This document shows, one piece after another, positions 7,059 to 24,146 of a stretch of DNA of 64,000 bases. Every line of letters starts with the position of its first letter. The first letter of the stretch is position 1. A program made the translations under genes and the position numbers. A model generated the notes under the pieces. It had not been told where the DNA came from. It saw only the letters and a list, made by a program, of their open reading frames with translations, and searched no databases. The stretch is from Parcubacteria group bacterium (GTDB lineage Bacteria; Patescibacteriota; Minisyncoccia; Moranbacterales; GCA-2747515): positions 292-64,291 of the forward strand of contig JBAZXC010000005.1 of assembly GCA_041660065.1 (NCBI GenBank), read 5' to 3'.

Positions 7059-7077
7059 AATGATGTAATCTTATATA

Positions 7078-7413: not shown

Positions 7414-7445
7414 AAACAAAAAAATAAAGACTTGCAACGAATCTG

Positions 7446-7580: not shown

Positions 7581-7639
7581 ATTATAATTATGTAACAATA
7601 ATCACTAGTAAATAGCTCAATTATCCTAACATGGCACGT

Positions 7640-7860: not shown

Positions 7861-7914
7861 AATTCTTTCATATTACGGATATATTAAGTGTAATTAGTGA
7901 ATTGAATTAAAAAA

Positions 7915-9342
7915 ATGGATACTATAGATCTGTGGAAATCAGTATTGGGAAGCATTGAATTATCAATTTCAAAGGCAAATTTTAGTACGTGGTTCAAAAA
8001 TACGAGAATTCTTTCTATAGAAAACAAGCATGTTATTGTTGGTGTGCCAAATGGATTTGCAAAAGAATGGTTGGAAAACAAATATCAGTCATATATTTTA
8101 CAAGCATTGCGTGTTGAAATGCCGGATGTTGTGAGTATGAGTTGTGCTGTGTATAATCCACAAAACATTGAACAAAACGTCTCTGTAAACAAAGAGCCTG
8201 AAAAACAAAAATTATCGGAAAAGTCTATTGGGGAAAAGAAGCGGGTATTTGAAGAAGAAAAAAAGCCCTATGTACAGCAAAAAACAGGCTTTTCCCAATC
8301 GCTTTTATCCGCAAATAACATTAGTCTCAATAGCCGTTACACATTTGATAATTTTATTGTCGGAGAACACAACGAGCTTGCAAAAGCGGCATGTCATGCT
8401 GTGTGTGAAAATTTGGGAAGAATTTATAATCCGCTCTTCATTTATGGTAAAGTTGGTTTAGGTAAGACGCATTTATTGCAAGCAATTGGGAATTATGTGC
8501 GATCGAGCGATGCAGCAAAAAAAATTGTTTATACAACATCTGAACGTTTTACAACGGAATTGGTTAATGCCATCAAAAATAATAAAGCGGATAAATTCAA
8601 GGAAGATTATCAACTTGTTGATTTGCTCATTATCGATGATGTGCAGTTTTTGGCAGGAAAAGAAAAAACACAGCAGGAATTCTTTCATATTTTTAATGTG
8701 CTCTACAATCTCAATAAGCAGATTGTAATTTCCAGTGATCGTCCTCCAAAATCAATTAGTACACTTGAGGAGCGATTGCGATCGCGGTTTGAGGGCGGTA
8801 TGATTGTGGATGTCAGTCAACCGGATTTGGAAACACGTATTGCAATTTTACGCACGAAAGCAATGGAAAAAGGATTTTATCTCAGTGACGATGTTTTGCG
8901 GTTTATGTCAGAAAATATCAAAAACAACGTGCGTGAGCTGGAGGGTGCATTGAATCGGGTAATCGCGATCTGTGATCTGCATAAGAAAGAGCCAACGCAA
9001 CAATTGGTGGAGCAGGCATTGGGGGAGATCATTCAAAGCAGCAAAAAGAAGTGTGTACAAAATAAAAATATCATTGATGTCATTTCTGAATTTTATGAAA
9101 TTGATAAGGAGGAACTGATCAAAAAAGGACGAAAGAAAGAAGTTGTGTATCCACGACAAGTGGCAATGTATCTTTTGCGAAAAGAATTAAACATGTCATA
9201 TCCGGGTATCGGAAAATATTTCAGCGGAAGGGACCACACAACTGCGCTTCATGCATATGAAAAGATCAATAGGGAAATTAAGGAAAATGATCGTTTGAGA
9301 GAAGAAATTGGGTTTCTGCGTGAGAAATTGTACTCCGTGTAA
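7915..9342 (+). CDS. dnaA: chromosomal replication initiator protein DnaA
   Basis: 475 aa with Walker A 'GKVGLGKTHL', AAA+ motifs and a C-terminal DNA-binding domain ('VAMYLLRKEL'). Confidence 0.95.
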   Translation: MDTIDLWKSVLGSIELSISKANFSTWFKNTRILSIENKHVIVGVPNGFAKEWLENKYQSYILQALRVEMPDVVSMSCAVYNPQNIEQNVSVNKEPEKQKLSEKSIGEKKRVFEEEKKPYVQQKTGFSQSLLSANNISLNSRYTFDNFIVGEHNELAKAACHAVCENLGRIYNPLFIYGKVGLGKTHLLQAIGNYVRSSDAAKKIVYTTSERFTTELVNAIKNNKADKFKEDYQLVDLLIIDDVQFLAGKEKTQQEFFHIFNVLYNLNKQIVISSDRPPKSISTLEERLRSRFEGGMIVDVSQPDLETRIAILRTKAMEKGFYLSDDVLRFMSENIKNNVRELEGALNRVIAICDLHKKEPTQQLVEQALGEIIQSSKKKCVQNKNIIDVISEFYEIDKEELIKKGRKKEVVYPRQVAMYLLRKELNMSYPGIGKYFSGRDHTTALHAYEKINREIKENDRLREEIGFLREKLYSV

Positions 9343-9390
9343 TTTTTTAGGATATTTATTATTCAAATAATCCATTTATTGTAGCGTATT

Positions 9391-10533
9391 ATGAAAGCAA
9401 CATGTACATACGAAAACCTTAAAAGCGCTCTACATGCAACAGAGTTTGCTACGAGCAAGAGTGCCACATTATCCATATTAAATAACATCCTCATTGAAAC
9501 GGATGGTGCACAGTTGTGTTTCTCGGCGACAAATTTGGAAATTGGGATCATCAAAAGAATTCAAGCAAAAATTGATGCTCCGGGAAAAATTGTTGTTTCC
9601 GCCGGTTTGCTGGGGAGTTTTTTGACAGCGTTGCGTGGTACGGATCATATCACCATGAGTGTTGATGGGCAGATCTTGCTGTTGCAGAGCGGTGCGCACA
9701 AAGCGCGTATCAATGGGTATAATGTGGATGAATTTCCCATTATTCCACAAAGCAGTGCACAAAACATGGTAGAATTTTCTCTGATATATCTCAAAGAATG
9801 CATTGCAAAAGTTTTGCATTTTACATCAAAAAGTGAAACACGCATTGAACTGACAGGTGTGTTTATGTCTTTTGGTTCTGATGAGGTATGTAGTGTAGCG
9901 ACTGACAGTTTTCGTTTGGGAGAAGTCAAGATTCCGGTCAGTGAATTGGCAGTAAACATAAAAGAATATCATACTGTTACAGAAAACAATAAAAACATCA
10001 TCCTTCCACAACAGCTTTGTGCATATATCAATAAGCTTTCTGATGATCATGATATTGTACAATGCAACATTGAAGAAAATCATTTATTCTTTGCATGTGG
10101 TGATCTTTCCATTACTGCACGGTTGATTGATGGTTCTTATCCTGATTATAAACAAATTATTCCCAAAGATGCGTTAACACATGTCGTAATTAAAAAGGAT
10201 GCTCTCATGGAGGCGATGAAAATCACAACTGTTTTTACAGGGCGAGAAAGTGGTGAGATCCATTTTGACATTGATGGACAAATACTTAAAATTACGACAC
10301 GACAGCAGGACGTTGGGGAAAATACAACAGAGCTCCCTGTACTTACTGAGGGAGAGCCACAAAATATCGTGCTTAATCCACGATTTGTCATTGATGGTAT
10401 TGGACGCATTGATGAAGAGGATGTGCGTATTTCAATCAACGGTAATACGTCACCGGTGATGTTTCGTGGATATAAAAACGGAGAAGTAAGTGAACGATAT
10501 ACATATATCGTCATGCCTGTAAAAAGTGCGTAA
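9391..10533 (+). CDS. dnaN: DNA polymerase III beta subunit (sliding clamp)
   Basis: 380 aa immediately after dnaA, with three-domain beta-clamp length and organisation. Confidence 0.9.
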   Translation: MKATCTYENLKSALHATEFATSKSATLSILNNILIETDGAQLCFSATNLEIGIIKRIQAKIDAPGKIVVSAGLLGSFLTALRGTDHITMSVDGQILLLQSGAHKARINGYNVDEFPIIPQSSAQNMVEFSLIYLKECIAKVLHFTSKSETRIELTGVFMSFGSDEVCSVATDSFRLGEVKIPVSELAVNIKEYHTVTENNKNIILPQQLCAYINKLSDDHDIVQCNIEENHLFFACGDLSITARLIDGSYPDYKQIIPKDALTHVVIKKDALMEAMKITTVFTGRESGEIHFDIDGQILKITTRQQDVGENTTELPVLTEGEPQNIVLNPRFVIDGIGRIDEEDVRISINGNTSPVMFRGYKNGEVSERYTYIVMPVKSA

Positions 10534-10535
10534 AA

Positions 10536-10838
10536 ATGAAAGGGATCAAATCATACATTCAAAAAAAGAAAAAAAATGCGCAGGCAATCCGCAAAGAAAA
10601 TATTTCCGTCGATGATCAAACGATCATGCATCTTTTTTCACGTGCAGTACGAGAAGAATATGGCAGACAAGGTGAAAAAAATATTGTACCAAAATTATAT
10701 AAAAATGGACTGATTTTTATCAGTATTCATAACGCGATCTGGGCGCAGGAAATATGGTTGCGTCGGGATTTTTTTGTCGAAGCTCTTAACGAAAAAATCG
10801 GACGCAAGGTTGTGAGAGGAATAAAAATCGCCACATAA
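10536..10838 (+). CDS. DUF721/DciA-like protein (possible helicase-loading factor)
   Basis: Basic 100-aa protein translationally coupled to dnaN. Its position and size match the DUF721/DciA genes found next to dnaN in many bacteria. Family assignment from memory only. Confidence 0.4.
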   Translation: MKGIKSYIQKKKKNAQAIRKENISVDDQTIMHLFSRAVREEYGRQGEKNIVPKLYKNGLIFISIHNAIWAQEIWLRRDFFVEALNEKIGRKVVRGIKIAT

Positions 10839-10852
10839 ATGGCGATTTTTTT
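10824..10852. terminator. bidirectional intrinsic terminator
   Basis: Hairpin AAATCGCCA-cataaa-TGGCGATTT with an A tract before and a T tract after. Lies between the convergent DUF721 and PBP1A genes. Confidence 0.5.
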
Positions 10853-10879
10853 GTACAATGCACAACAACAGGCTTGGTG

Positions 10880-13507
10880 TTAATAGGCTACAGAAACAGA
10901 TTTTTTTGCAGAAGCGGTGTTGCCAGCTGTGTCAGTCAAGCGTACCTCAATCGTGATCGATGAATTATTTTGGCTAGAGGGAATCGAATAGGTGTAACTT
11001 TTATCTTTTGTCTCAACTTTTTTTTCACCCTCTACAAAATATTCGATTTTTTCAACGTCGTAATCTGTTTTTGGGCTAACTTTTATGGTAAGTTTGTCAG
11101 AATTTACAGAATCCGGAACAGAGAGGGAAACTTCTGCTTTTAGATCCTCAAAATCTTCTTTTTTGCAGTCTTCCGGCACATCGTCAAAAACAGCATTTTT
11201 GTCCTTCTCTGTGTAATATTTTTTTACACCCTTTTCCCAATTTTTGTATTGAGGATCGGATTTTGGATCCTTTGGCTCATCGCCACGAGGATCGTCTTTG
11301 ATCACATAATGGAGAATATTGTGGATATTGGCAAATAAAATCTTATCTTTTTTGCTGTTGGGACAGTATTTGTTGGCAAGACAAAATGCATCATCTTTGC
11401 CGGGAATCTCACATACCTCAACTTTTTTTGTTTCAGGAAGCTCCCCGTCAAGAATGTCTTTTCCAGTCTTATTTTCGTCTTTATCATATTTTGGAAATTC
11501 TTTGCCGGATGGCTCGGAATATGCTTGTAAGATGAAATCACGAAAGATCGGCCCGGAGGCGCTGACGCCTGCGCCATAACTACTCATTGGCGAATTATCA
11601 TTATTGCCACTCCATATGCCTACGGCGACATCTGGTGTGTATCCCATAACCCATGCATCGCGGTTTTGATTTGTTGTACCAGTCTTTGCTGCAACGGGAC
11701 GATCATCAAAGCGCAAAACGTTATTTTCACCAAATGTTGGTGCGCGATATTTATTCGTTGAGATAATGTGGGAGAGCATTGCAACATATTTTTCGTCAAT
11801 TACGCGCTCTCCCTCGGTGGTTTGTGCTGTATAGATATTTGCACCGCCTTTGTCAGTAATGCTTAATACGGCGCGCTTTTCTTGCTTTATGCCGTTATTG
11901 GCAAAAACGGCATATGCGGCTGTGTGATCAAGGAGTTTGACTTCACCGCCTCCAAGTACAAGGGAGAGGCCATAGCGCTTTGGATCCTGTAAGCTTGTGA
12001 TGCCAAGTTGTTTTGCAAAAACAATTACTTCTTCAGGGTTTGCGAGATAGAGTGTCTTTACTGCGGGAATATTGAGCGACATGCCAAGGGCATCTTTCAT
12101 TTTGACGGGGCCACGAAATGTACCATCATAATTTTGTGGAATGTAATCCTCTGCCCCATCAACAGCAAAGTTTGTTTCGACGTCAAAGAGTATGGTTTCC
12201 GGTGTGTACCCTTTTTTAAAAGCGTAAAGGTACGCATAAGGCTTGAATGATGAGCCCGGTTGTCTATCGCGGATGGCAACATTGACTTGACCGTCGATCT
12301 TTTCATCAAAATAGTCGCGAGAGCCGACCATGGTGAGAATATCGCCGTTTTGCGGGTCAATGGCAACCAGAGCGGCATTTTCAGCTTTATATTTTTGTTC
12401 ATTTTCCAGAGCTTTGTCATGGACAATTTTTTCTGCAATTTGTTGTTTGTTCCAATCAAGTGTTGTGATCACCTTCAAGCCTTCTTTCTCGAGGAAGTCG
12501 GTGCCATACTGTTCTTCGAGGTAATCACGGACATACATGACAAAATGAGGTGCCTTGATATTTTCTGTATTTTTGGCAAGTTTTGCAAAAACGTCAGTTT
12601 CCTTTGCAGCTTTTGCCGCATCAGGACTGACGTAGCCCAGTTCCACCATTTGATCAAGGGCATATTCCTGCCGCACCTTTAGGCGATCTGTATAGGATCC
12701 ATAAGGCGAGTAACGGGATGGCGCTTGTGGAAGCGAGGCAAGGATCGTTGCTTCATCCAACGTGAGATCTTTTGCATGCTTGTTGAAAAATGTTTGCGAG
12801 GCGGCTTCAATGCCATAGGCGTTTGAACCATAAGGAATTTCATTGAGATACATGCCGAGAATTTCATCTTTGGAAAAACGTAATTCAATCTCAACGGCGA
12901 GAATGAGCTCTTTGATCTTACGTGTCATGCTACGCTCATCCGTAAGGATGGAATTTTTGACGAATTGTTGTGTGATCGTTGAACCGCCACGTCCCGCGCC
13001 AATGTGAAAAATATTGGAAATGACAGCATTGAGCACACCTTTGACGTCAAATCCCGGATGATGATAAAAATTACGATCTTCAAGTGCGATCGTCGCTTGT
13101 TTGACAACGAGAGGGATTTCTTCTTGAGGAATCAATGTGCGTTTTTCTTCGCCGTGAATGTCATAAAGAAGTATGGTGCCCGTACGATCATAGATTTTTG
13201 TGCTTTCATTGATCGTTCTGGCATTGATCTTGCCCGGCTCCGGGAGATCTTTGGCAAAATAGGCAAAAACACCCATTACAAACAAAAGGCCAATTGCACA
13301 AAGAATGCCAAAAAATTTCAAAAAAACAATCATTTTTTTACGAAAATCACGGTGTGGTTTTTTTTGCAGAGAAGATGGTCGGCGGGAAGTAAAAACGTTG
13401 CCAATCTTGTTCCATAGGCGTGTAAGTATATTTTTTTTGCGTGAACGGGAAAGGTCTCTGCGATACGGTTGTGTGCGCATTGTGTAGCGCGAAAACGTGT
13501 TTTTCAT
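10880..13507 (-). CDS. penicillin-binding protein 1A (bifunctional glycosyltransferase/transpeptidase) with C-terminal Ig-like extension
   Basis: 875 aa with GT51 motifs ('EDRNFYHH', 'GGSTITQQ') and a transpeptidase domain (SxxK, KTGT 'AAKTGTT'). The N-terminal cytoplasmic tail is basic. Confidence 0.85.
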   Translation of the reverse strand: MKNTFSRYTMRTQPYRRDLSRSRKKNILTRLWNKIGNVFTSRRPSSLQKKPHRDFRKKMIVFLKFFGILCAIGLLFVMGVFAYFAKDLPEPGKINARTINESTKIYDRTGTILLYDIHGEEKRTLIPQEEIPLVVKQATIALEDRNFYHHPGFDVKGVLNAVISNIFHIGAGRGGSTITQQFVKNSILTDERSMTRKIKELILAVEIELRFSKDEILGMYLNEIPYGSNAYGIEAASQTFFNKHAKDLTLDEATILASLPQAPSRYSPYGSYTDRLKVRQEYALDQMVELGYVSPDAAKAAKETDVFAKLAKNTENIKAPHFVMYVRDYLEEQYGTDFLEKEGLKVITTLDWNKQQIAEKIVHDKALENEQKYKAENAALVAIDPQNGDILTMVGSRDYFDEKIDGQVNVAIRDRQPGSSFKPYAYLYAFKKGYTPETILFDVETNFAVDGAEDYIPQNYDGTFRGPVKMKDALGMSLNIPAVKTLYLANPEEVIVFAKQLGITSLQDPKRYGLSLVLGGGEVKLLDHTAAYAVFANNGIKQEKRAVLSITDKGGANIYTAQTTEGERVIDEKYVAMLSHIISTNKYRAPTFGENNVLRFDDRPVAAKTGTTNQNRDAWVMGYTPDVAVGIWSGNNDNSPMSSYGAGVSASGPIFRDFILQAYSEPSGKEFPKYDKDENKTGKDILDGELPETKKVEVCEIPGKDDAFCLANKYCPNSKKDKILFANIHNILHYVIKDDPRGDEPKDPKSDPQYKNWEKGVKKYYTEKDKNAVFDDVPEDCKKEDFEDLKAEVSLSVPDSVNSDKLTIKVSPKTDYDVEKIEYFVEGEKKVETKDKSYTYSIPSSQNNSSITIEVRLTDTAGNTASAKKSVSVAY

Positions 13508-13601
13508 ATGTTTATATCATACACTCTTTGCGATGTTTTGAAAATTAAGAGTGGATACAGTATAAAGAATAAACACTTTTTTGTAAAGCGTTTATTTCTT
13601 C

Positions 13602-14906
13602 CTATTTTTCCAAAAAATCCAGATCTTTCTCGGTGATGTTTAATTGGTCAAGGATCCATATGTGTCGCTGATTTGTCGGATCGTATTTACCAACCAAAAA
13701 ACGCGCTTGCTCTGGATCATCATTTTTAATCAGTGTATGGATGCCGATATTTCCTTCTCTGTAGGCAATATCCTTTGTAAAACAGGTGCCTGGAGTAGAG
13801 CATGTTGTGCCACGAAATGTTCGTACGCACAGATTCCATGCGAGAGATTCGGATTTTTTGGCATCCTTTCCATTGGCTATATAATAATTTTTCAAAATAT
13901 CAAAAACTGCTCTAAAATCTCGTTTTTTCCCGTCCAATCCTTTTGCAAGAGCGGCGGTAAAATGTCCGCCAAATCCCGCATAATCCTCTTCTCCCATAAT
14001 TTGTCCTTCTTGATACGTTGCAATACCCTCCTCGCCTTTTGTGTAACGATCAAGACCAAGTCCCAACAAATGGATTTTGGTTCGATCACCAGCAGCACGT
14101 CTTTGGGCATGTATAAAGATCTCATGCGCGATCAAGCCTTGTAATTTTAGTCCGGAAACAGTGCGCTTTTGGGGTATTTTGATTTTTTTATCATCCTGAG
14201 AGACAGAAATTGCTTTTACATGATCATCAATTGCAACGTGCCATCCACTGATATTTTGTGACAATAAGGCATTTTCAAATGCTTCCTGGATGTTCTCGGC
14301 AGTATATTGCTCCTGAGAGGAAATAAAGCGAATGGGCTCAACCTTTTCATGTGGTGGAATTGTTGTTTCTGTTTCTGTATCACATAGATCCAGGATTTTT
14401 TGTGCAGAATCTTTCTGTTCATCCGTGCTTTTTTCAGAAGAGATTGTATCGCACATTTTTTTTGCGGTTTGCCACAGCGTATAATTGTGAATGTTTTGTT
14501 CTGGAACGCCGTAGACAAAAGATGAGTAATGATCAAATTTTTTATCATCACCGTCTAAGGTTGCGCGCATCATGCGTACTTCCGCGATTTTTTCATTGAT
14601 CTTCCATCGATACATTTGCCGTACAACGTCATTTTTTTCCTCATGCAGAATATCCCTTTTGAGTTCCACGAGTTCTTTTTCGCGATAGTCAAGCTCATTG
14701 GGATTGATCTTTGGATAGTCGAGATGCGGATTTTCAATTTCTCCACGAAGGAAAAGGTTTTTTTGATCCTCTCTCTTTTGTGGATCGTCATCAAAATATG
14801 TGTACGGCTGAAAACCGCCAACAAATTCAAGGCGGTCATACCATTTTTCGTCCACATATATTCCTCCTTGTTTTTCCGGGTAAAAAGTGCTTTCGGGTGA
14901 TGACAT
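13602..14906 (-). CDS. DUF1704/MATCAP-like putative metallopeptidase (HExxxH)
   Basis: 434 aa with 'AHEIFIH' (HExxxH) and downstream 'YQEGQ' resembling the QEGLA motif of the DUF1704 family. Last gene of the ATP-grasp operon. Confidence 0.45.
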   Translation of the reverse strand: MSSPESTFYPEKQGGIYVDEKWYDRLEFVGGFQPYTYFDDDPQKREDQKNLFLRGEIENPHLDYPKINPNELDYREKELVELKRDILHEEKNDVVRQMYRWKINEKIAEVRMMRATLDGDDKKFDHYSSFVYGVPEQNIHNYTLWQTAKKMCDTISSEKSTDEQKDSAQKILDLCDTETETTIPPHEKVEPIRFISSQEQYTAENIQEAFENALLSQNISGWHVAIDDHVKAISVSQDDKKIKIPQKRTVSGLKLQGLIAHEIFIHAQRRAAGDRTKIHLLGLGLDRYTKGEEGIATYQEGQIMGEEDYAGFGGHFTAALAKGLDGKKRDFRAVFDILKNYYIANGKDAKKSESLAWNLCVRTFRGTTCSTPGTCFTKDIAYREGNIGIHTLIKNDDPEQARFLVGKYDPTNQRHIWILDQLNITEKDLDFLEK

Positions 14907-14908
14907 AG

Positions 14909-16135
14909 CTATATGGTGATCACATGCATATGATCACGAATAAATGTAAAATCTTGTAAAAATTGATCTTTGTGTGCATTTTTTATTATTATAACACATG
15001 CCGTGCGATATCCGTTTTTTGCCAAACCGACTTTTTGAGAAGGAATGGCTTTTATGGAGTGATAGTGATAACTTGAAAGTTTTTTTAATACCTGTAGATG
15101 CGTGATTTTCTTGAAACCCCCATCATTTTTTGGGAAAAGTTCTATAACAGCAGTATAAATACACTTTTTATTTTTTTGAAAAATCTTTTTACCTTGCGCA
15201 TTTGCAATGAGTGCAGCATTGAGATCCAATCCTTGAGACATGTGATATAGTCGTGTGCGATAGCCGCCGACGCGTGGACCGATTTCCACTACCATAGGAC
15301 CCTTTTTTGTATAAATTAATTCAACATGACCGGGTGTATTTGTAAATGCTAACGCACGCGTTGCTTTTTTTGCAACATGATTTAACTTTGCTATTTTTTT
15401 GATCGAAAGGATTGATGGGGAGATCCGTGCAAAAATATGATGATCTTCAATGTCGCGATCCTTTGCGACAAATAGATCAACAGGATCGCCAAAAACGGTC
15501 ACATGCCCGTTTTTTTGCGCAAATGTTTGAACGGAATGCATGGATCCGCGCAAAAACTCTTCCATGAGGATGCGCGGTTTTTGTGTGCGATGCTCTTTGT
15601 TATAAATTGATGTAATGGTCTTTTTTATGAAATTGTAACTTGCAACCAGGTGATCATTTGACAGCACTTTTGTGACGAGAAGACTTTTTTGCAGATTTGC
15701 CGGTTTGATCATGAGAGGAAATCCAATTTTTTTTGCAAAACGTTTTACATCATTGATGTTATTGATGATTTTATATTTTGGGGTCATTGTTGGATCATAT
15801 GCGGTGAGTGCTTTGCGCATAAGGATCTTATCAATTGCCATTTTTGCGCTCGTGATTGTAATTGTGGGAATACCCAAGAAGTTACCGAGCCAGGATCGTG
15901 CAATCACATATCTTTCATAAAATGTTATGATTGCCACCGGTTGTGCGGAAAAATTTATAGTGCGCAGGGTATGAAGAAACTGATTTTTTGATCGTATGTC
16001 AACAAGAAAAATATTTTGGTACAGTGACATTTTCTCACGCTCCTTTTCGGTCGTGACGCAAATAATATAAGGGATTGATCTTGTAGAAAGATATTCCATA
16101 AAATCGTGAGAAGCAATTCCCAAAATAATGATCAT
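14909..16135 (-). CDS. ATP-grasp domain ligase
   Basis: 408 aa with 'PLMIKPANLQ', 'MEEFLRGSMHSVQ' and 'VELIYTKKGPMVVEIGPRVGG', typical of carboxylate-amine ATP-grasp ligases. Confidence 0.65.
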   Translation of the reverse strand: MIIILGIASHDFMEYLSTRSIPYIICVTTEKEREKMSLYQNIFLVDIRSKNQFLHTLRTINFSAQPVAIITFYERYVIARSWLGNFLGIPTITITSAKMAIDKILMRKALTAYDPTMTPKYKIINNINDVKRFAKKIGFPLMIKPANLQKSLLVTKVLSNDHLVASYNFIKKTITSIYNKEHRTQKPRILMEEFLRGSMHSVQTFAQKNGHVTVFGDPVDLFVAKDRDIEDHHIFARISPSILSIKKIAKLNHVAKKATRALAFTNTPGHVELIYTKKGPMVVEIGPRVGGYRTRLYHMSQGLDLNAALIANAQGKKIFQKNKKCIYTAVIELFPKNDGGFKKITHLQVLKKLSSYHYHSIKAIPSQKVGLAKNGYRTACVIIIKNAHKDQFLQDFTFIRDHMHVITI

Positions 16136-16173
16136 ATATAAAAAAATAATTAATTAAAAACCTCTCTGATTTT

Positions 16174-17223
16174 TCAGATTGACGGTTTCTTAAGGATTCT
16201 ATTGTAAAGGGCAATATATTGTGTGGCCATAAGAGAACGATCAAAATATTTCTCGGCAAATTTGCGACAGGCATCTCTTTCAAAGCGATCAATATTTTTT
16301 GTGGCCGCGAGCAAATCAGCAGGATCATTTGAAAAACAACCGATTTTTTCCATCTCAAAATACATTTTTTTCGGTAAGGCATTGATGAATGAACCGATGA
16401 CTGGTGTGCCACACGCCAATGCTTCCATTGCAACCAGAGGAAAAACAGAAAGTGGTGTGCGAATAGGGCACAAAAGCGCCTCAGCATTTTTTACATATGC
16501 AAACACATCTTTGCGAGAAGCTTCTCCTTTATAAATGATATTTTTATCAAGATGCGGTTTGATATTTTTATCAAAATAGTTTTGTCGCTCCAAAGAGTTA
16601 CCGATTCTTCCAAAAATGAGCAGTTTTTTGTCACTTTTTTTTGCGAGGTGAATGGCTGTATCAAATCCCTTGTGTTTATTTATGCGACCAAGCGTCATCA
16701 GATATGAGCCATTTTTTGAGGAATATTTAACGGTATTGATCGGAATGCCATTGGAAATAATGTCCGCATACCCAGTCAGTGTATTCATTCTGCCTTTGGA
16801 AAGCGCTACAGGATACGCGCCACTGCGCTTTAGTTGGTAACTGTCCCTTTTTTGTATTGGATTGTGTAATGTTATGACACAAGGTGTGTGTGATAATTTT
16901 GCAACTGATGCTGCGTATCTCTGATTGTGGAGGTGAATAATATCGAAGTCATTTTGATATTGTAAAACCATGCATTGGCTGATGATGATCAAATTCCTTC
17001 TCTCCTTATCCGTTTGTTGTGAAAAGTCCTTCATGTTCCACAAGCTTTTCGGTAATGTGTGAATGTGTTTTGCTTTTGTTTTCCAATCTCCGGGTGCAAA
17101 AAGAGTTACATCGACTCCTTTTTCCAAAAGAGCATCTGTTAAATTTTTTACGACGACTTCCGGTCCGCCAGTGGCACCAAAGGGAGGTGCAACCATTGCA
17201 ATTTTTAGCACAGATTTTTTCAT
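16174..17223 (-). CDS. GT4-family (GT-B fold) glycosyltransferase
   Basis: 349 aa with a C-terminal 'EALACGTPVIGS' (E-x7-E type motif) and GT-B organisation. Confidence 0.7.
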   Translation of the reverse strand: MKKSVLKIAMVAPPFGATGGPEVVVKNLTDALLEKGVDVTLFAPGDWKTKAKHIHTLPKSLWNMKDFSQQTDKERRNLIIISQCMVLQYQNDFDIIHLHNQRYAASVAKLSHTPCVITLHNPIQKRDSYQLKRSGAYPVALSKGRMNTLTGYADIISNGIPINTVKYSSKNGSYLMTLGRINKHKGFDTAIHLAKKSDKKLLIFGRIGNSLERQNYFDKNIKPHLDKNIIYKGEASRKDVFAYVKNAEALLCPIRTPLSVFPLVAMEALACGTPVIGSFINALPKKMYFEMEKIGCFSNDPADLLAATKNIDRFERDACRKFAEKYFDRSLMATQYIALYNRILKKPSI

Positions 17224-18183
17224 TTAAACAATCGTTTTAATAAATTCTTGAAAGTGTTTTTCTTTTGTCTTTTCATCTCCAACGAGATGTAGCAGATCAA
17301 ATCCCGGCGTAGTATTCATTTCGACAAGAAGCGGTTTTCCTGTATTTGTAAAGATAAAATCTAAAGAATAATTGGCTTCAGGATAAAGGGACAATTTTTT
17401 GACGATCTTTTTGACGATCTTTTGAATAGACGGCGGAATATTTTTGCGTGGAACAAAAACGGCTGAGGCGCCCTGATGAAAGTTGGTAAAAAGGGAACCT
17501 CTTTTGGCGATCCTGGAGAGGGCATAGACTAATTTGTGATTGATAAATATTAACCTCAGATCTGCCACCTCATCTTTTTTTGAAAAGTGGGGAATGCCTT
17601 TCTCACTCTTGATGAATTCTTGGATTAATGCTGGAAAAACAATTTTATTTTTTGGAATTTTATTTTTTTCATCAATGATTATACCAAAACCACCAGAGCC
17701 ATATAATGGTTTTATAACGACTTTTGAGGAGGAAATTTTTGCAAGTGCTTCCGTCATTTCTTTTTTATTTGTCGCCAAGAATGATCGTGGCATAAATTCG
17801 CCAAAGATCAAGTATTGGGAAAGCTTGTTGTCCAATAATGTTCTAAAAAGAGGGTGATTGAAAATCTTTGTTTTTTGAGAAAGAAGCATTTTAAAATCAA
17901 AGAGCGCATAATCATATTTTCCGGAAATTTTGTCAAAGACAAGATCCGGTGTGATTGGTGTTTTTATTTTGATCCATTTTTTATTGCGAAATGCCCATGA
18001 TTTTTTAAAGGCGTTGGTTTTTCCATCATACCAATCAATACTTGCTCGGTACATTTCTACGCCATTTAACAAGCCCCTCTCATGCCAATCTTCAAAAGAT
18101 TCTCTTGTGGTATCGCTTGCAATTGGTATTTTTTTATGCCAATCATTACTGGTGTAAATGACCATCATTTTTTTGTTTGCCAT
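17224..18183 (-). CDS. ATP-grasp ligase (RimK/TTL/YheCD-like)
   Basis: 319 aa with 'VVIKPLYGSGGFGI' and 'LVEMNTTPGF', characteristic of RimK/tubulin-tyrosine-ligase-like ATP-grasp enzymes. Confidence 0.6.
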   Translation of the reverse strand: MANKKMMVIYTSNDWHKKIPIASDTTRESFEDWHERGLLNGVEMYRASIDWYDGKTNAFKKSWAFRNKKWIKIKTPITPDLVFDKISGKYDYALFDFKMLLSQKTKIFNHPLFRTLLDNKLSQYLIFGEFMPRSFLATNKKEMTEALAKISSSKVVIKPLYGSGGFGIIIDEKNKIPKNKIVFPALIQEFIKSEKGIPHFSKKDEVADLRLIFINHKLVYALSRIAKRGSLFTNFHQGASAVFVPRKNIPPSIQKIVKKIVKKLSLYPEANYSLDFIFTNTGKPLLVEMNTTPGFDLLHLVGDEKTKEKHFQEFIKTIV

Positions 18184-18189
18184 AATGTT

Positions 18190-19599
18190 TTATTTGCTTA
18201 CATCAATTAAAAATTTTCCGAGATTTCGTTTTCCGATGATCATATCATATGTGAGATTTTCACGATCGATGATGTTCATACTAACAGTCATGCGTCTTTT
18301 GTCCAAAGTAATTTCTGCTTTTACTACAGGTCGGATCGATGCACCACTGGAAGAAAAAACAACCGCAATATCTGTGATGTGAGGAATATTCTTTTTATAT
18401 TTTCGCATGAAATCGTCTTTGATGACCTGCTCATTTTGAGGAACAAGGTCGTATCCTGCAAGATCAATTTTCGAAAAAGCATCAATAGTTGAACCAAAGC
18501 CAAGTTTGCGCGCAAGTTCTGTATCTATGGATGTAGAATAGGCTCCGGTATCAATTTTTGCTTTCGTTGTGATTTTTGCATCATTTGTGCCGATAATTTC
18601 CACATTTTCTACTGAGCCGATCACGCTTTTTCCGGAAACGCTCTCAAGCTCTTCCTCGATTTCACCGCCAAAGAGATTTTTGCCCACAGCAATACCGCGA
18701 GCGATAGAATTGATCTTGAGGCCTTCTACGCGCTCAAGGCGACGCTTGAGTCCTGCGAGGTTTGCAACTTGAATGGAGAGTCCCGGGCGTGCGTTGAGTT
18801 CCAGGATCACGGGACCATTATCGCGATCAATTGCAATGTCAGCACCGAGATAACCGAGTCCGGACGCAATTTGTGATTTGATCGCTAAATGGAGAATTTC
18901 ATCCCAATGGGGGATTTTGATGCCGGAAAGTAGGAGGCGTGTATTTGGCACATACTCCACAATGCGAGATTTACCTTGTACTGCTGTTGTTGTTACACCG
19001 CGTGCCATATCGATCCCAACGCCAATGCCACCTTGCTGGAGATTTGCTTTGCCGTCGGATTCTTCGGTTGGAAGGCGCAGCATCGCCATAACAGGCACTT
19101 TATTGTAAACAATGACGCGGATATCAGGGATGCCCTTATATGCATATGGACGGAATTCTTTTGATAGTTTGAGACGTTCTTCAAAAAAAGCAATATCCGG
19201 CGTACCGGAAAGAGAAAACTCACCATCCAAGATATGTCCAATATGCATTTTGAGATCGGCAATTGAGACGGGTCTGCCATTTGACCGTACCCATGTATCC
19301 AATGATCCTTTTTTTCTGCCATAGATCACAATGATACCTTCACCGCCCAGGCCACGATTTGGTTTGAGTACAAAACTTGATGGTAAGATGCTCCAATCAA
19401 AATTTTCCAGTGTACGGCGTGACGAAATCTGCGCGATCAATCGTGGCACGGGAACCCCGGCTTTTCGGAGTAATTTTTTTGATGTGATTTTTTCATCAGC
19501 AAGTCGTTTGGCTTTTTTGCGATTATTTGGACGAATGTATGTAAGGTTGCGCGCATTCATCCCAAGGATCTTCTTGCTTGCGGAAAACAAAGTAAACAT
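18190..19599 (-). CDS. RimK-like ATP-grasp ligase fused to C-terminal retropepsin-like (PF05618-type) domain
   Basis: N-terminal 'ILGMNARNLTYI' as in alpha-L-glutamate-ligase-related proteins. ATP-grasp core 'VILELNARPGL'. The C-terminal roughly 140 aa carry 'AKIDTGAYSTSID' (a D-T-G-A aspartic protease signature). Confidence 0.6.
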   Translation of the reverse strand: MFTLFSASKKILGMNARNLTYIRPNNRKKAKRLADEKITSKKLLRKAGVPVPRLIAQISSRRTLENFDWSILPSSFVLKPNRGLGGEGIIVIYGRKKGSLDTWVRSNGRPVSIADLKMHIGHILDGEFSLSGTPDIAFFEERLKLSKEFRPYAYKGIPDIRVIVYNKVPVMAMLRLPTEESDGKANLQQGGIGVGIDMARGVTTTAVQGKSRIVEYVPNTRLLLSGIKIPHWDEILHLAIKSQIASGLGYLGADIAIDRDNGPVILELNARPGLSIQVANLAGLKRRLERVEGLKINSIARGIAVGKNLFGGEIEEELESVSGKSVIGSVENVEIIGTNDAKITTKAKIDTGAYSTSIDTELARKLGFGSTIDAFSKIDLAGYDLVPQNEQVIKDDFMRKYKKNIPHITDIAVVFSSSGASIRPVVKAEITLDKRRMTVSMNIIDRENLTYDMIIGKRNLGKFLIDVSK

Positions 19600-19610
19600 G
19601 AGCAGAGATA

Positions 19611-20303
19611 TTATTGAATTTTTTTGATCACATCGCGAAAGCGGAGATATTCACTCAAGCGCAATCCAGTCCATTTTCCGATGAAGAGATTAATTGGGAT
19701 AATGAGGAGCACGACCCATGTGTGGATGAGTGTAAAACGGATGATCGTTTGTCCGATGATTGTTGTCGGAGAAAGGATCGTATATCCGACAAGAGCAATA
19801 AAAAGAGTTTCAACGGCAAGGAGGAGTGCAGTGCGAGAACCTTTTTCAATTTGCACGGTTACAAATTTTTCCACAAGCATAATGATGATAAGAATGGGAA
19901 AAACCGGCGCAGAAGAGAACCCTGTGCGACCTGTGCTACCACCAAATGCTAAAATTGCCAAAACGGCGAAAGAGACAACGGTGAGCGTGATGGCAACGCG
20001 AGGCAGGTAGAGAAGACGAAATTTTTTCAAAACATACCGCATCATCATGCCGACAAAAATGACGGTCACATAAACCATGATGGCGTATTTGATATCCGAC
20101 CAACGCTGTTGACCGATAAAGACGAATGCGAGTGTGATAATGGATGGCGTATAAATACCAAACGCTTGGATGCCAACAATTTGACGTAGTACAACAACGA
20201 CAGTAACGATCACAGGAAAAAGCAAGAGAAGTGTGATCGTTGAGATCTCAACATGCTGTGCCAATAAAAAATGGATCAGAGGATTATAATATGGTTCATA
20301 CAT
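19611..20303 (-). CDS. 7-TM membrane protein (partner of the RimK-like ligase)
   Basis: Seven hydrophobic helices. The start was moved to internal ATG 20303 (MYEPYYNPL), because the longest ORF would overlap ruvC by 89 nt. Confidence 0.5.
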   Translation of the reverse strand: MYEPYYNPLIHFLLAQHVEISTITLLLLFPVIVTVVVVLRQIVGIQAFGIYTPSIITLAFVFIGQQRWSDIKYAIMVYVTVIFVGMMMRYVLKKFRLLYLPRVAITLTVVSFAVLAILAFGGSTGRTGFSSAPVFPILIIIMLVEKFVTVQIEKGSRTALLLAVETLFIALVGYTILSPTTIIGQTIIRFTLIHTWVVLLIIPINLFIGKWTGLRLSEYLRFRDVIKKIQ

Positions 20304-20808
20304 AAGTGTGGAAATTAATTGTTTGTAAATATTTGCGTGAGTTACTGTGGCAAAGAGCAACGGCAAGGGCATCGGCCGTATCATCCGGTGTGGGAACTTT
20401 TTTTAATTTTAACACGTTTCTGATCATTTCTTGCATTTGGCTTTTATTTGCGCGGCCGTATCCCGTCAATGATTGTTTGATTTGTAGCGGCGTGTATTCA
20501 CCAATCACGAGTTTATGAGAAAAACATGTGTGTAGGATCACGCCACGCGCTTGCGCAACAGTGATGATCGTTTTTGCATTTTTGAAATAAAACAATGTTT
20601 CGAGTCCAGCCTCATGTGGTTTGTATGTATTGATCAGATCAGTGATTCCTGAAACGATTTCCGCAAGTCGTGTAGCATCGGACAGTGTCGAAAGTGTTTC
20701 AATGTGTCCATAGGCAACAACCTTGTTGGAAAGTTTTTGCGGATCATGATCGATCACGCCCCATCCTACAATTGCTGTGCCGGGATCTATGCCTAGTATA
20801 CGCACCAT
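20296..20808 (-). CDS. ruvC: Holliday junction resolvase RuvC
   Basis: 'ILGIDPGTAIVGWGVI' N-terminus and RuvC length. ATG at 20808 chosen; the TTG at 20829 is the track start. Confidence 0.85.
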   Translation of the reverse strand: MVRILGIDPGTAIVGWGVIDHDPQKLSNKVVAYGHIETLSTLSDATRLAEIVSGITDLINTYKPHEAGLETLFYFKNAKTIITVAQARGVILHTCFSHKLVIGEYTPLQIKQSLTGYGRANKSQMQEMIRNVLKLKKVPTPDDTADALAVALCHSNSRKYLQTINFHTYV

Positions 20809-20840
20809 AATTTTATTTTTAACATTCAACTATAGCACAT

Positions 20841-21539
20841 TTAAGCAACGTTGTCAAAGATTTCCACCACATCGTCAAGGTTGTCAATGAGGTCATACAG
20901 TTTTTTGTATGCACCTTTATCATTTTCACTTAATTGTATTGTTTGCGTAGGATTATAGACAAGTTTTGCTTCGGTAACATCATCTGTAATGTGTGAAAGT
21001 ACGGCATGTAATTCTTGTGGTTTGGTAATAATGATTACAGAATGATCCTCAACAAAAACGTCATCAGCACCAGCATCAATTGCCGTCATTTCTGCCGTGT
21101 CAACATCTTGTGATGCAGTGACAATGTACCCAACGTAATCAAATTGAAAGGCGACGCTTCCGCTTGGTACAAATTTTCCATTGTTTTTTTTGAGAATAGT
21201 TTTGATTTCTGTGAGCGTGCGATTGGTGTTGTCCGTGGCGCAGGCAATCATCATTGCAACGCCACCCGGACCCATGGCCTCATACACAACCTCCTCAATG
21301 CGCGCACTATCTGTGCCACTGCCACGCTTGATCGCACGGTCGATATTATCTTTTGGCATATTTGTCTTGCGCGCTTGATCGATTGCGATGCGTAGAGCAT
21401 TGTTTGTAATCACATCTGATCCGCCGTTTTGTACAGCAACGGCAATGATCTTGGCAATGCGTGTAAACACTTTTGATCGTTTGGTATCTTGTGCTTCTTT
21501 GCGATGTTTAATACCCGACCATTTATTATGTCCTGACAT
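20841..21539 (-). CDS. yebC: YebC/PmpR family transcriptional regulator
   Basis: 232 aa beginning 'MSGHNKWSGIKHRK'; the classic yebC-ruvC pairing. Confidence 0.85.
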   Translation of the reverse strand: MSGHNKWSGIKHRKEAQDTKRSKVFTRIAKIIAVAVQNGGSDVITNNALRIAIDQARKTNMPKDNIDRAIKRGSGTDSARIEEVVYEAMGPGGVAMMIACATDNTNRTLTEIKTILKKNNGKFVPSGSVAFQFDYVGYIVTASQDVDTAEMTAIDAGADDVFVEDHSVIIITKPQELHAVLSHITDDVTEAKLVYNPTQTIQLSENDKGAYKKLYDLIDNLDDVVEIFDNVA

Positions 21540-21622
21540 AGAGAAGTTTTTCTAAGAGTTTAATAGTGAAATTGATTGAGTGTTTTTATATTCTCATTTT
21601 TTTATTTTTTGCGCAAGATTTT

Positions 21623-23134
21623 TTATTGTACGTCATGTTTTGGGGTACCTGTGCAGAAATTATATACAGATGCGTCAGATGGCACAATGGAGGGAATATC
21701 GCATCGATTTGTATCTTGTGTGAGTGTGTATGATGGAAACAAATACTGTTGTTTGTAAAACGAGGGGACAAATTCTGCAATTTTTTTATCAACGCCAGAG
21801 AGAGTATGTGTGATCAATGCATTTATTTTTTCAAAAAGAACAACAAAAAAAGATAATTGTGAGCGCGCGAAAGAGGTGTGCATGTGAGGGTTGTAAATAG
21901 CATCGTAGGCAATGGTTTGCTCGGCAGTTTGTTGTGTGAGCAATTGTTCATTGGCGATGGCGCGCATGATAATTGCAAGAGTTTGCTGCTGTTTTGCGCG
22001 ATCTTTTGGGATGGTCCACTGCCATGTGTTGCCGATTAGCTCATAGGTAGCATTATCGGAAATAGTATCTGTTGTGTCTCCATAAGATATGTGATCGGAC
22101 ACGGATCCATCCGGTCGGCGCAATTCGATCACGCCGGTTTTGTTGGGGAGGGTAATGGCGGCATATGTATGTGTGATCATTTTTGTGGCGCCTTTTTTGA
22201 TCGTAATATGTTGACTGATTGGATGATTGACCAGCGTCTTTTTTGTTGAGCCGGTCGCGATGCTCCATCCATAAAGATCGAGAGAATCTTTTTCTGCATT
22301 GTGCAATAAAAGATACTCATTGCCCGTATCTTTGCCGGCAGGATTTGGGACAATTTTTGTAATTTTCAATTTATATTTTGGATATTTTGTGACAACAACG
22401 GTAAAATTCTGCACAATGTCCTCGCTGTCATCTTGCACGCGCACAGAGCCGTAGTATGTTCCTGCAGTTTCATATTTGTGGCGCGTTTCCCATACATAGC
22501 TTCGGTGGCCATCGCCAAAGTCCCAGCGTACTTTTAATTTTTCACCATCGATATCTGTTGCACGTATTGAAAAATCCGCGTAGACATTTGTGTAGGCAAT
22601 TTTTTGTATGACGGTTTTTGTAAGGATAGGAAGATTATTAAAGACGTTTGGCTTTTGTGGCGTGAGAAATTTGCTCCAGCGCCATGATTGGTTTGTGAGA
22701 TCAAAATTAAAAGAAAGGTTTTCTCGAGAGGATTGATATGAAGTGGTGCTGACGATTTTTTCGTTCGGTGCGATAAGGGATATTGTTTCATTGCTGTTAT
22801 TGAGTGCAAAGATGAATTGTGTGCGGAAGATCACAATGTAAGTGTGTGCTTCAATAATAGTACTGTGTGTAAATGTATAGGATCCGGTAGAAGAGGCATC
22901 ATGCAATGTCCAATTTTTGAGATCAGCAGAAATATCATTGGGGTTGTAAATCTCAATAAACTCGTTGGTTTCCTCGTCATTAAGCGGATTTGGCAATATC
23001 TCACTCAATAATAGTTGCGGATATGATTGTGTTCGCGGATCTGGCGTATTGGATGTATCCGGAGTCATTTCTGCCCAATACCAATCAGGAGCGTTATTCA
23101 GCGATAATCCCTCGTGCGCTTGTGTGTACGACAC
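21623..23134 (-). CDS. lamin-tail-domain (LTD) repeat surface protein, 3' portion of a frameshifted gene
   Basis: Contains two LTD units ('LLSEILPNPLNDEETNEFIEIYNP', 'KIVPNPAGKDTGNEYLLLHN'). Reading frame continues from ORF 23190..24146 after a 1-nt frameshift near 23225. Confidence 0.6.
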   Translation of the reverse strand: MSYTQAHEGLSLNNAPDWYWAEMTPDTSNTPDPRTQSYPQLLLSEILPNPLNDEETNEFIEIYNPNDISADLKNWTLHDASSTGSYTFTHSTIIEAHTYIVIFRTQFIFALNNSNETISLIAPNEKIVSTTSYQSSRENLSFNFDLTNQSWRWSKFLTPQKPNVFNNLPILTKTVIQKIAYTNVYADFSIRATDIDGEKLKVRWDFGDGHRSYVWETRHKYETAGTYYGSVRVQDDSEDIVQNFTVVVTKYPKYKLKITKIVPNPAGKDTGNEYLLLHNAEKDSLDLYGWSIATGSTKKTLVNHPISQHITIKKGATKMITHTYAAITLPNKTGVIELRRPDGSVSDHISYGDTTDTISDNATYELIGNTWQWTIPKDRAKQQQTLAIIMRAIANEQLLTQQTAEQTIAYDAIYNPHMHTSFARSQLSFFVVLFEKINALITHTLSGVDKKIAEFVPSFYKQQYLFPSYTLTQDTNRCDIPSIVPSDASVYNFCTGTPKHDVQ

Positions 23135-23189: not shown

Positions 23190-24146
23190 TTATTGAGCGC
23201 AAATCCGAATGTGCTGCGATATACGATCTAAATATGCATGTGCATCGATTGTCGCATCACCAAAAAGATATGTTCCAGTTGCCGTTGCATCTTTGATCAT
23301 CCAATTTTCTAGTGATGCAGATGTATCAAAAGGATTGTAGATCTCAATGAATTCATCAGTTTCTTCATTGTCGATCGGGTCAGGGAGAAGCTCGTTAAGC
23401 ATGAGCGCGGGATAATCTTTTGTGAGGGGATTTTCCATATTTTCTGCATGTGGCGTCGGAGATTCTTCATACCACTGCGAATCGTCATAATTCCACGACA
23501 ATCCCTCGTGAGATGTTGTATATGCATAGTGTGCGATGCGGATGTGGTCCGCGTTATCCACAAAGATTTCTTCGTCGCTGTTGTTGAGCACAAAAGAAAA
23601 ATCTCGTTGATTGTACAGTGTGAGATAGTCGTGTGGCGCTAGTATGATATTGCCAAATGTGAAACGCTTCGATGGACTTGCGATGCCGGTTTTATCATAG
23701 ATTTCCCAATCTTTTAAATCGACAGTGCTATCGCTGTCATTGTATAATTCGATAAATTCATTGCCTGTGTCCGATCCGGACGGGTTTGCTAAAATTTCAT
23801 TGATGCGGATAGCGTCTGCAGTCAAAGATCTTGCAGTTTTTTCTGTAAGAATTTTTTGTGGTTCATTGGGTGTTGGCGGTGTTGGCGTTTCTGTGGGATC
23901 GAGGATTGTATCAAGCGGTGATGAAGGGGCGCCTTCTTCCAATGGGATTGAGGGCAGCTGTTCAGAAGGGGACACTTCTTCTCTCTCTTCCATTGTGAGA
24001 GGAAGATCATTTTTTGGTGTTGGTGTCTCTTGAATAGGAGGAACTGAAACGGGCGGATCGGTTGATGTGGGCGTGTCAGCACATGTATAGAATGGCGGTA
24101 TGCCAATGAGCAAAACAAACAAAATGACACGAAAGACTATGCGCAT
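23190..24146 (-). CDS. secreted lamin-tail-domain repeat protein, 5' portion of a frameshifted gene
   Basis: Signal peptide (MRIVFRVILFVLLIG), a Pro/Thr-rich linker, then LTD units ('INEILANPSGSDTGNEFIELYND', 'LNELLPDPIDNEETDEFIEIYNP'). The last LTD is truncated by the frameshift. Confidence 0.6.
   Translation of the reverse strand: MRIVFRVILFVLLIGIPPFYTCADTPTSTDPPVSVPPIQETPTPKNDLPLTMEEREEVSPSEQLPSIPLEEGAPSSPLDTILDPTETPTPPTPNEPQKILTEKTARSLTADAIRINEILANPSGSDTGNEFIELYNDSDSTVDLKDWEIYDKTGIASPSKRFTFGNIILAPHDYLTLYNQRDFSFVLNNSDEEIFVDNADHIRIAHYAYTTSHEGLSWNYDDSQWYEESPTPHAENMENPLTKDYPALMLNELLPDPIDNEETDEFIEIYNPFDTSASLENWMIKDATATGTYLFGDATIDAHAYLDRISQHIRICAQ

Follow-up and report, generated by a model that had tools for sequence, protein, structure and literature searches.

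In Pseudomonas aeruginosa, the rloABC genes encode a secreted retropepsin (RloA), a protein that joins an inactive transglutaminase to seven transmembrane (7TM) helices (RloB), and a cytoplasmic ATP-grasp ligase (RloC) (Lormand et al., mBio 2025, PMC12239564). RloA and RimB cleave poly-Glu chains of at least eight residues by means of basic residues around a DTG motif, and loss of all three RloA paralogues is lethal under hypo-osmotic conditions and impairs cell shape, biofilm formation and antibiotic resistance (PMC12239564). Deleting rloB or rloC suppresses these defects, fully for hypo-osmotic growth and partly for the others; the system influences beta-lactam sensitivity as well as the shape and osmotic tolerance of the cell, its secreted protease shows no genetic interaction with rimB, and 96% of RloB matches lie in Proteobacteria (PMC12239564). 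In eukaryotes, MATCAP/TMCP enzymes take off C-terminal Tyr and Glu and shorten polyglutamate chains, using a site in which HExxxH is joined by a third ligand from an EEG motif (PMC10499314). Here we describe a locus in which relatives of all these proteins lie together: six minus-strand genes, g1 to g6, on a 64,000-nucleotide stretch (the window) of contig JBAZXC010000005.1 from a Parcubacteria group bacterium of the Moranbacterales, in the Patescibacteria or candidate phyla radiation (CPR). A sequence-only reading of the window had listed these genes and knew of no experimental study of the combination. All six open reading frames (ORFs) and all the peptide strings that it quoted were found (coordinates in Table 1), but the core is a variant of RloABC, which has already been studied genetically, structurally and biochemically in P. 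aeruginosa (PMC12239564).

The component families and the core are not new, Rlo having been known experimentally since 2025 and the families having been defined by earlier comparative genomics. Within the searchable literature, whose coverage leaves out the 2009 comparative genomics of amidoligases, we found no description of CPR fusions of a ligase with a retropepsin or with a dead retropepsin and MATCAP, of bare or PKD-bearing 7TM architectures, of a quantitative MATCAP-ligase linkage or of a replaceable amidoligase cassette; MATCAP and ATP-grasp, or any pair of DUF1704, QEGLA, MATCAP and ATP-grasp, were never mentioned together there.

The 7TM and ligase-retropepsin core and its cassette

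By family matches and motifs, g1 and g2 form a CPR variant of the Rlo/Rim ligase-protease systems. The g2 and g6 proteins are 100% identical to NCBI MAG (metagenome-assembled genome) proteins encoded on a 78.6-kb contig. In g2, an RloC-type ligase is followed by a RimB/RloA-type retropepsin in one chain. The protein scores 235.5 bits against ATPgrasp_ST (PF14397; cut-off 31.4), and against TIGR02291 it reaches 1.1e-85 and 287.4 bits. Because this last score is slightly below the 314.2 cut-off, g2 is a relative in the TIGR02291 family outside the equivalog. Across 26 homologues the ATP-grasp residues K79, D159, R161, D254, E267 and N269 are invariant, as are K348, D350, T351, G352, A353, R423 and R446 in the retropepsin. 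The latter domain aligns with the RimB/RloA-family structures 9g59, 9g58 and 2pma, with AKIDTGAY on AKMDTGAY, and this puts the DTGA at the catalytic position, as the sequence-only reading had supposed. Judging by motif context, K348, R423 and R446 would match RloA K46, R114 and R137. Neither a hydrophobic segment nor a signal peptide is present in g2, and the retropepsin, being fused to the ligase, is thus predicted to be cytoplasmic. Proteins 62–84% identical to g2 fill more than 100 clusters, the named sources of which are mostly Moranbacteria.

The seven helices claimed for g1 are borne out by seven hydrophobic segments and by an all-helical AlphaFold2 model (mean confidence score pLDDT 94.1). 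Its PF14402 score is 89.7 bits (cut-off 25). At 230 residues, g1 covers only positions 313–507 of the 508-position RloB model and has no PF14400 match, so that it corresponds to the C-terminal 7TM half of RloB without the ectodomain; an alternative ORF start at 20384 is possible, and the orthologues favour the 230-residue form. The positive-inside rule gives an N-out/C-in topology. No transmembrane segment was found in g2–g6, the lone hydrophobic peak of g4 being the catalytic motif EALACGTPVI. This 7TM family comprises 1,275 clusters at 50% identity, either bare (~215–240 residues) or with N-terminal ectodomains. Among 39 members ranging from Moranbacteria to classical RloB, conservation lies mostly on the cytoplasmic face, at R40, G44, R96, P101 and a C-terminal tail motif whose residues G209, R215, E218, R221 and F222 are 97–100% conserved; one membrane-embedded glutamate, E145, is likewise conserved. 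The extreme C-terminus varies across the same members and is therefore unlikely to be the ligase's substrate, a candidate that we ruled out. We infer that g1 serves as a docking platform, a conduit or both.

The 7TM gene lies directly upstream of the ligase gene in all loci examined, and the two are neighbours in each of the ~40 loci, which range from those of Moranbacteria to the rloABC loci of cyanobacteria and Gammaproteobacteria. As in RloABC, an RloC-type ligase stands beside a 7TM_transglut protein and a DTGA retropepsin with a basic substrate channel. The window differs from it in several respects: its retropepsin forms the C-terminal part of the ligase chain and is predicted to be cytoplasmic, whereas RloA is stand-alone and secreted; g1 lacks the N-terminal periplasmic inactive-transglutaminase domain of RloB; g2 falls just short of the TIGR02291 threshold; a variable cassette of ligase, glycosyltransferase and peptidase genes follows the core; and the host belongs to the CPR. 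The g2 query also recovered the classical three-gene form from cyanobacterial and gammaproteobacterial metagenome-assembled genomes (MAGs; loci L025 and L026), and the RloB of L025 has PF14400. The RimK-RimB system shares with g2 the physical coupling of a cytoplasmic ATP-grasp ligase to a cytoplasmic retropepsin that trims poly-Glu, and RimK entries are the nearest structures to g3. Rim, however, has no 7TM partner, and both g2 (56.4 bits) and g3 (47.4 bits) stay below the cut-off of the RimK family model TIGR00768 (143.4 bits); they are RimK-like at the level of Pfam domains only. The CPR versions are minimal natural variants of Rlo: they have two genes, a single chain holds ligase and peptidase, and the ectodomain is sometimes missing. 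They reveal which parts are indispensable, and reconstitution could be easier with them. That Rlo matters to Pseudomonas, for its osmotic tolerance, cell shape, biofilm formation and antibiotic resistance, has been recognised only since 2025.

To place the six genes among relatives, we compared g2-anchored loci from one genome per species and from long contigs. Every Moranbacteria locus has the order yebC-ruvC-7TM-fusion, with a gene for the class A penicillin-binding protein (PBP) PBP1A further downstream, and the genes between differ. Fourteen complete cassettes, the window's included, contain a g3-like gene in 11 cases, MATCAP in 4, a family 4 glycosyltransferase (GT4) in 2 and a g5-like gene in 2, and 2 are empty; the relatives without a cassette are L013 and L016. 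Nearly all other cassette ORFs are extra ATP-grasp ligases (RimK-like, R2K and others). An orthologue of g5 occurs in L006 only among these loci, and GT4 is present in several MATCAP-anchored loci. At the DNA level (blastn), the window is 77–78% identical to its closest relative, L005, over 18182–21545 and 10006–13592, with no homology across 13593–18181. It shares only g5-g6 of its cassette DNA with L006 and only g3 with L001. The GC content of the cassette is 0.378 vs 0.41–0.435 for the flanking genes. The six-gene operon is thus a constant core followed by a mosaic, swappable, lower-GC cassette. The sequence-only reading had treated the six genes as one set; they are co-localised here, but the exact combination was found in the window only, and in relatives the 7TM and ligase-retropepsin genes alone are constant, with g3 frequent. 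Many Moranbacteria with very small genomes keep the locus yet constantly reshuffle its accessory ligases, which suggests that its product is important to their way of life and subject to diversifying selection.

Surface-polymer loci of the O-antigen and capsule type show whole-cassette replacement and mosaicism between conserved flanks, together with lower GC. The window's cassette is likewise swapped, mosaic and of lower GC between conserved flanks; unlike those loci, it consists mainly of ATP-grasp amidoligases, not of sugar-nucleotide and glycosyltransferase genes, and it holds no Wzx/Wzy-type genes.

The calls of ATP-grasp for g2, g3 and g5 and of GT4 for g4 all proved sound, with significant Pfam matches above curated cut-offs. 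Several RimK/GSH-S/YheCD ATP-grasp models match g3 at ~1e-11 to 1e-13, its best NCBIfam match is glutathione synthase, and its closest solved structures are the RimK entries 7qys, 5zct and 4iwx, with nucleotide and Mg motifs retained. In g4 both GT4 domains exceed their cut-offs, no equivalog model is reached, and there is weak similarity to GT4s of the BshA/MshA type. The closest solved structures to g5 are BacD and other L-amino-acid ligases: HVE...VEIGPR falls on HTE...IESAAR of BacD, the E...E-x3-R motif is retained, and the score against the BacD equivalog model is 42.8 bits (cut-off 850).

Genes outside these families were seen in other cassettes. Some carry a YdjC-family deacetylase or a SAM methyltransferase (L009:12485-13117, L004:14225-14821); together with GT4, these are a hint at sugar or other tailoring as an optional part of the system. 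In L005 (14200-16059, minus strand) and L015 (13288-15129, plus strand), MATCAP is replaced by HExxH proteins of 613–619 residues (HEIGHV and HEFTHF), for which neither a Pfam match nor any detectable similarity to g6 was obtained; they may represent a further, undescribed metallopeptidase family.

MATCAP-type peptidases and their coupling to the ligase

The last gene of the cassette, g6, is predicted to encode a carboxypeptidase of the MATCAP/DUF1704 family (102.1 bits against PF08014, cut-off 27). Aligned to human MATCAP, its HEIFIH (261–266) falls on HEIGTH and its EEGIA (292–296) on EEGLA. Across 36 homologues H261, E262, H266, E293 and G294 are invariant and E292 is nearly so or invariant. 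The HExxxH that the sequence-only reading picked out is therefore at the catalytic position; the YQEGQ (298–302) that it took for the QEGLA equivalent is not, the true counterpart being E292-E293-G294-I295-A296. The expected MATCAP-like structure was also recovered in prediction: the AlphaFold2 model (pLDDT 91.2) has a MATCAP-like gluzincin fold, and its top four Foldseek matches in the Protein Data Bank are the human MATCAP entries 7z5g and 7z6s (probability 1.0, E 2.5e-5 to 1e-4, TM-scores 0.37–0.56), with 7z5g best and M32, ACE and DUF885 gluzincins next. Identity between g6 and human MATCAP is 14–19%. Against TIGR02421, the QEGLA equivalog, g6 scores 77.7 bits where 338.65 are required, and it is a relative of that family, not a member. 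The kinship with TIGR02291 and QEGLA proteins that had been proposed thus stands for g2 and g6, while equivalog membership does not, both falling below the cut-offs.

A metagenome scan with the g6 sequence alone gave nothing; an alignment query gave homologues. Linkage was counted over non-redundant MATCAP-anchored loci flanked on each side by at least 6 kb. The g2 fusion lies within 10 kb in 8 of 15 such loci, far above the ~2% expected by our own estimate (a 20-kb neighbourhood in a ~1-Mb genome), which argues against chance adjacency.

A more direct coupling was found outside Moranbacteria. In three loci (L022-L024), an RloC-type ligase is itself fused to a MATCAP domain, beside a PKD-7TM_transglut gene; one 799-residue fusion protein matches ATPgrasp_ST at 3.4e-56 and MATCAP at 1.8e-44. 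Fusions of this type, ~780 residues long (P0241-P0360), are found in Magasanik-, Kerfeld-, Buchanan-, Peregrini- and Gracilibacteria and make up more than 120 protein clusters. They keep both active sites without variation, and their gene always follows a PKD-7TM_transglut gene (L022-L024, L109-L111), often with no second ligase near. These pairs have the ligase, 7TM and peptidase families of g2, g1 and g6, and the Magasanikbacteria loci also carry a g3-like second ligase. They differ from the window in that MATCAP is fused, the retropepsin is a dead remnant, the 7TM protein has an N-terminal PKD ectodomain and there is usually no cassette.

The remnant retropepsin in these fusions is shortened: AKIDTGA has become AKIDPH, ~60 residues are deleted, and the IIGK..L.KFL.D strand is kept, so the domain is apparently inactive. 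A profile-profile alignment of the two fusion types spans the retropepsin region, with weak pairwise support. Because the MATCAP fusion retains a degenerate retropepsin (DTG to DPH), the alignment indicates that the peptidase was swapped on one ligase scaffold. Together, the direct fusions and the swap make a strong comparative case for the MATCAP-type enzyme acting on what the ligase makes. Through this repeated coupling, the large bacterial DUF1704/QEGLA family acquires a concrete functional context for the first time and is tied mechanistically to the eukaryotic trimmers of tubulin tails.

The parallel with a tubulin ligase/MATCAP cycle, drawn by the sequence-only reading, fits and is strengthened by these gene fusions in other CPR phyla. 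In TTL/TTLL and MATCAP/TMCP, as predicted here, ATP-grasp ligases add C-terminal residues and an HExxxH plus EEG gluzincin removes Tyr or Glu, and g6 has the motifs and the fold; unlike there, no tubulin is involved, and the CPR ligase and peptidase can be a single polypeptide tied to a 7TM protein. We read this as a likeness in working mode, by analogy, with no evidence for a common substrate. Another bacterial pair, gammaproteobacterial QEGLA (TIGR02421) and a GshB-like protein, also sets a DUF1704/MATCAP protein beside a glutathione-synthetase-like ATP-grasp, but g6 is far under the cut-off for that QEGLA family. For the Photobacterium genes for QEGLA and GshB-like proteins, whose adjacency is read from their consecutive locus tags, induction at low salinity is 27- and 38-fold (PMC10308900), an echo of the Rlo osmotic phenotype.

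One Moranbacteria contig, Ga0209318_1000011 (L083, L087), carries two MATCAP paralogues, one in an Rlo-PBP cassette and one unlinked.

Proposed mechanism and its alternatives

We propose, with a probability of about 0.5, that the locus encodes a system, docked on the membrane, for building and trimming acidic peptide chains, with a strain-variable, envelope-directed product. The g2 ligase would bind g1 from the cytoplasmic side, docking through the conserved basic and aromatic tail motif, and, using ATP, would extend an alpha-linked, probably Glu-rich peptide on a putative acceptor or primer. The fused retropepsin would cut chains internally, for length control, release or primer generation; its retained K348-x-D350TGA, R423 and R446 count for cleavage of the poly-Glu type by analogy with RloA and RimB. 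Accessory ligases of the cassette would append strain-specific residues, GT4, where present, would add sugar, and g6 would trim residues from the C-terminal end, polyglutamate trimming by eukaryotic MATCAP/TMCP fitting a Glu-rich product. The product would be handed to or through the 7TM protein; we favour an envelope destination over a purely intracellular one because a 7TM protein is always present, because the cassette is replaced and mosaic, and because of the P. aeruginosa phenotypes. The earlier proposal of a membrane-associated amidoligase and peptidase system keeps its build-and-trim idea, which fits the families and motifs. Its trimming on a surface substrate is not favoured by the topology, since peptidases and ligases are predicted to be cytoplasmic, and glycosylation of the product would be pure conjecture, with GT4 in 2 of the 14 complete cassettes.

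Several observations weigh against this proposal. All ligase and peptidase domains here are cytoplasmic by topology prediction, while RloA is secreted, so the compartment where trimming matters may differ from that in Pseudomonas, and export is putative. Substrate, acceptor, product and the amino-acid specificity of each ligase are putative as well. About half of the MATCAP genes in these bacteria are unlinked to the core, and in a neighbour-joining tree cassette-linked and unlinked copies interleave with no clean split (the clade of g6 holds 9 linked and 3 unlinked members); the interleaving suggests that MATCAP has repeatedly moved into and out of the cassette. Co-transcription of the genes is a prediction from their spacing, and the adjoining PBP1A gene, seen in Moranbacteria alone, may reflect just an inherited gene order.

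The cytoplasmic placement of every catalytic domain would suit a purely intracellular role, in which ligases and peptidases modify the C-termini of cytoplasmic proteins, as RimK and RimB do on S6, and the 7TM protein is a sensor or regulator and not a conduit: a bacterial counterpart of the tubulin tyrosination/glutamylation cycle. RimK is closest to g3, the fused retropepsin is RimB-like, protein C-termini are the targets of MATCAP enzymes, ligase-peptidase fusions suggest a writer-eraser pair, and conservation in g1 is on the cytoplasmic face. We nevertheless think such tail editing unlikely: one to four variable extra ligases with GT4, YdjC or methyltransferase are ill-suited to regulating a conserved protein, a sensor ectodomain is missing from the bare 7TM protein, the Pseudomonas protease, a secreted one, shows no genetic interaction with rimB, and the neighbourhoods hold no conserved candidate substrate gene. 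The S6 gene is absent within the window. Still less probable, in our view, is the synthesis of a small molecule, a soluble di- or oligopeptide or a glycosyl-amino-acid conjugate serving as an osmolyte or thiol-like cofactor, which the peptidases would recycle and the 7TM protein import or export. The likeness of g5 to dipeptide-forming ligases such as BacD, the weak resemblance of g4 to BshA/MshA-type GT4s, which glycosylate small acceptors, the YdjC deacetylase in one cassette and the osmotic shifts tied to both Rlo phenotypes and the Photobacterium pair speak for it; yet RloA-type retropepsins require at least eight consecutive Glu and MATCAP acts on polypeptide tails, so a dipeptide is unsuited, the minimal module in many CPR lineages has a single ligase, and hypervariability is odd for a metabolite pathway.

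It could also be that only the core is functional and that g3–g6 are unrelated genes gathered at a recombination-prone spot near the origin. Cassette content is indeed very variable down to complete absence in two relatives, MATCAP genes also occur elsewhere in genomes, and dnaA-dnaN adjoin the locus. But the cassettes are overwhelmingly ATP-grasp amidoligases and peptidases and not a random gene sample, and the linkage of MATCAP to the core, its direct fusions to ligases, and gaps of 0–38 nucleotides with no terminator between genes make this explanation very improbable. Two further candidates were rejected. A graspetide-type cluster of ribosomally synthesized and post-translationally modified peptides does not fit, as the 0–38-nucleotide gaps leave no space for a precursor gene in the cluster, which would have to lie elsewhere, and the six proteins matched no PADLOC model of anti-phage defence at E up to 0.01.

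A membrane-docked system of the kind proposed can be set in a wider frame, which is tentative and which we consider unlikely. An RloC-type ligase, coupled or fused to a MATCAP carboxypeptidase and docked on a 7TM protein, would constitute, CPR-wide, a reversible addition and removal of C-terminal amino acids, a prokaryotic counterpart and possibly the source of the tubulin TTL/TTLL-MATCAP 'code', and in Moranbacteria the cassette would set a strain-specific peptide 'code' on a substrate at the envelope or close to the membrane. If true, that code may serve, for example, host attachment or phage evasion.

Gene layout and neighbouring genes

Table 1. Positions of the core, the cassette and the flanking genes in the window.
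Feature	Position	Strand	Evidence and remarks
yebC	20841-21539	-	Pfam; conserved upstream flank (flank span 20296..21539)
ruvC	20296-20829	-	Pfam; conserved upstream flank
g1, 7TM_transglut membrane protein	19611..20303	-	PF14402 2.7e-25
g1 cytoplasmic tail motif GKWTGLRLSEYLRF	19638..19679	-	family pattern G-K/R-W/Y-x-G-L-R-x-x-E-Y/L-x-R-F
g2, RloC-type ATP-grasp ligase + RimB/RloA-type retropepsin	18190..19599	-	PF14397 8.6e-70, PF05618 1.3e-8
g2 ATP-grasp domain, residues 17-292	18724..19551	-	ATPgrasp_ST model positions 2-277 of 278
g2 retropepsin domain, residues 322-468	18196..18636	-	PF05618; predicted catalytic D350-T-G-A at 18541-18552
Replaceable accessory cassette, g3-g6	13593..18181	.	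blastn vs relatives, GC
g3, RimK/GshB-like ATP-grasp ligase	17224..18183	-	Pfam RimK 6.7e-12, GSH-S_ATP 7.1e-11
g4, GT4 glycosyltransferase	16174..17223	-	Glycos_transf_1 1.8e-17 (63.9 bits), Glyco_transf_4 7.9e-13 (49.2 bits)
g5, L-amino-acid-ligase-type ATP-grasp	14909..16135	-	ATP-grasp_4 (PF13535) 1.4e-14, 54.4 bits vs cut-off 27
g6, MATCAP/DUF1704-family gluzincin metallopeptidase	13602..14906	-	PF08014 4e-29; HEIFIH 14109-14126, EEG 14025-14033
Class A PBP (PBP1A; transglycosylase + transpeptidase)	10880..13507	-	Pfam Transgly 3.5e-60, Transpeptidase 1.4e-21; final gene of the minus-strand run

The six genes had been described as tightly packed directly after ruvC-yebC, and the measured gaps agree: -8 nucleotides between ruvC and g1, then 11 (g1/g2), 6 (g2/g3), 0 (g3/g4), 38 (g4/g5) and 2 (g5/g6), with 94 between g6 and the PBP1A gene. 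Upstream, the yebC-ruvC synteny is kept in the Moranbacteria loci whose upstream flank is covered; downstream, the PBP1A gene is present in every Moranbacteria locus long enough to reveal its position. Between the six genes we found no terminator-like site: the one match on the minus strand (19209-19196) falls within g2. The only such site 3' of the PBP gene is at 10593-10579. Promoter-like sites precede ruvC and, at 13587-13559, the PBP gene. Paralogues of g1–g6 were not found elsewhere in the window.

The strongest promoter-like match of the region (20808-20857, minus strand), which agrees at 11 of 12 positions and has an extended TG, ends precisely at the annotated TTG start of ruvC. The real start is therefore probably the downstream ATG (MVRILGIDPG...), or else the transcript is leaderless.

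On the other side of the PBP gene, window positions 4384–10838 hold the gene set of a replication origin: a Polysacc_synt/MATE-like flippase gene and yidC, followed by plus-strand dnaA-dnaN-dciA, which converge with the PBP gene.

Among the relatives, records labelled 'Micavibrio sp.' or 'uncultured Gammaproteobacteria' (L005, L011, L019, L020, L022, L023) have loci that are 41–84% identical, with CPR-type synteny, and the taxonomic labels of these MAGs look doubtful.

Upstream of yebC, the window has two neighbouring ORFs with lamin-tail domains (LTD), at 21623-23134 and 23190-24146 on the minus strand, one of them with a PKD domain. Relatives hold a single LTD-PKD-LTD gene of ~650–825 residues at the same position, so the pair in the window may be a split or frameshifted gene.

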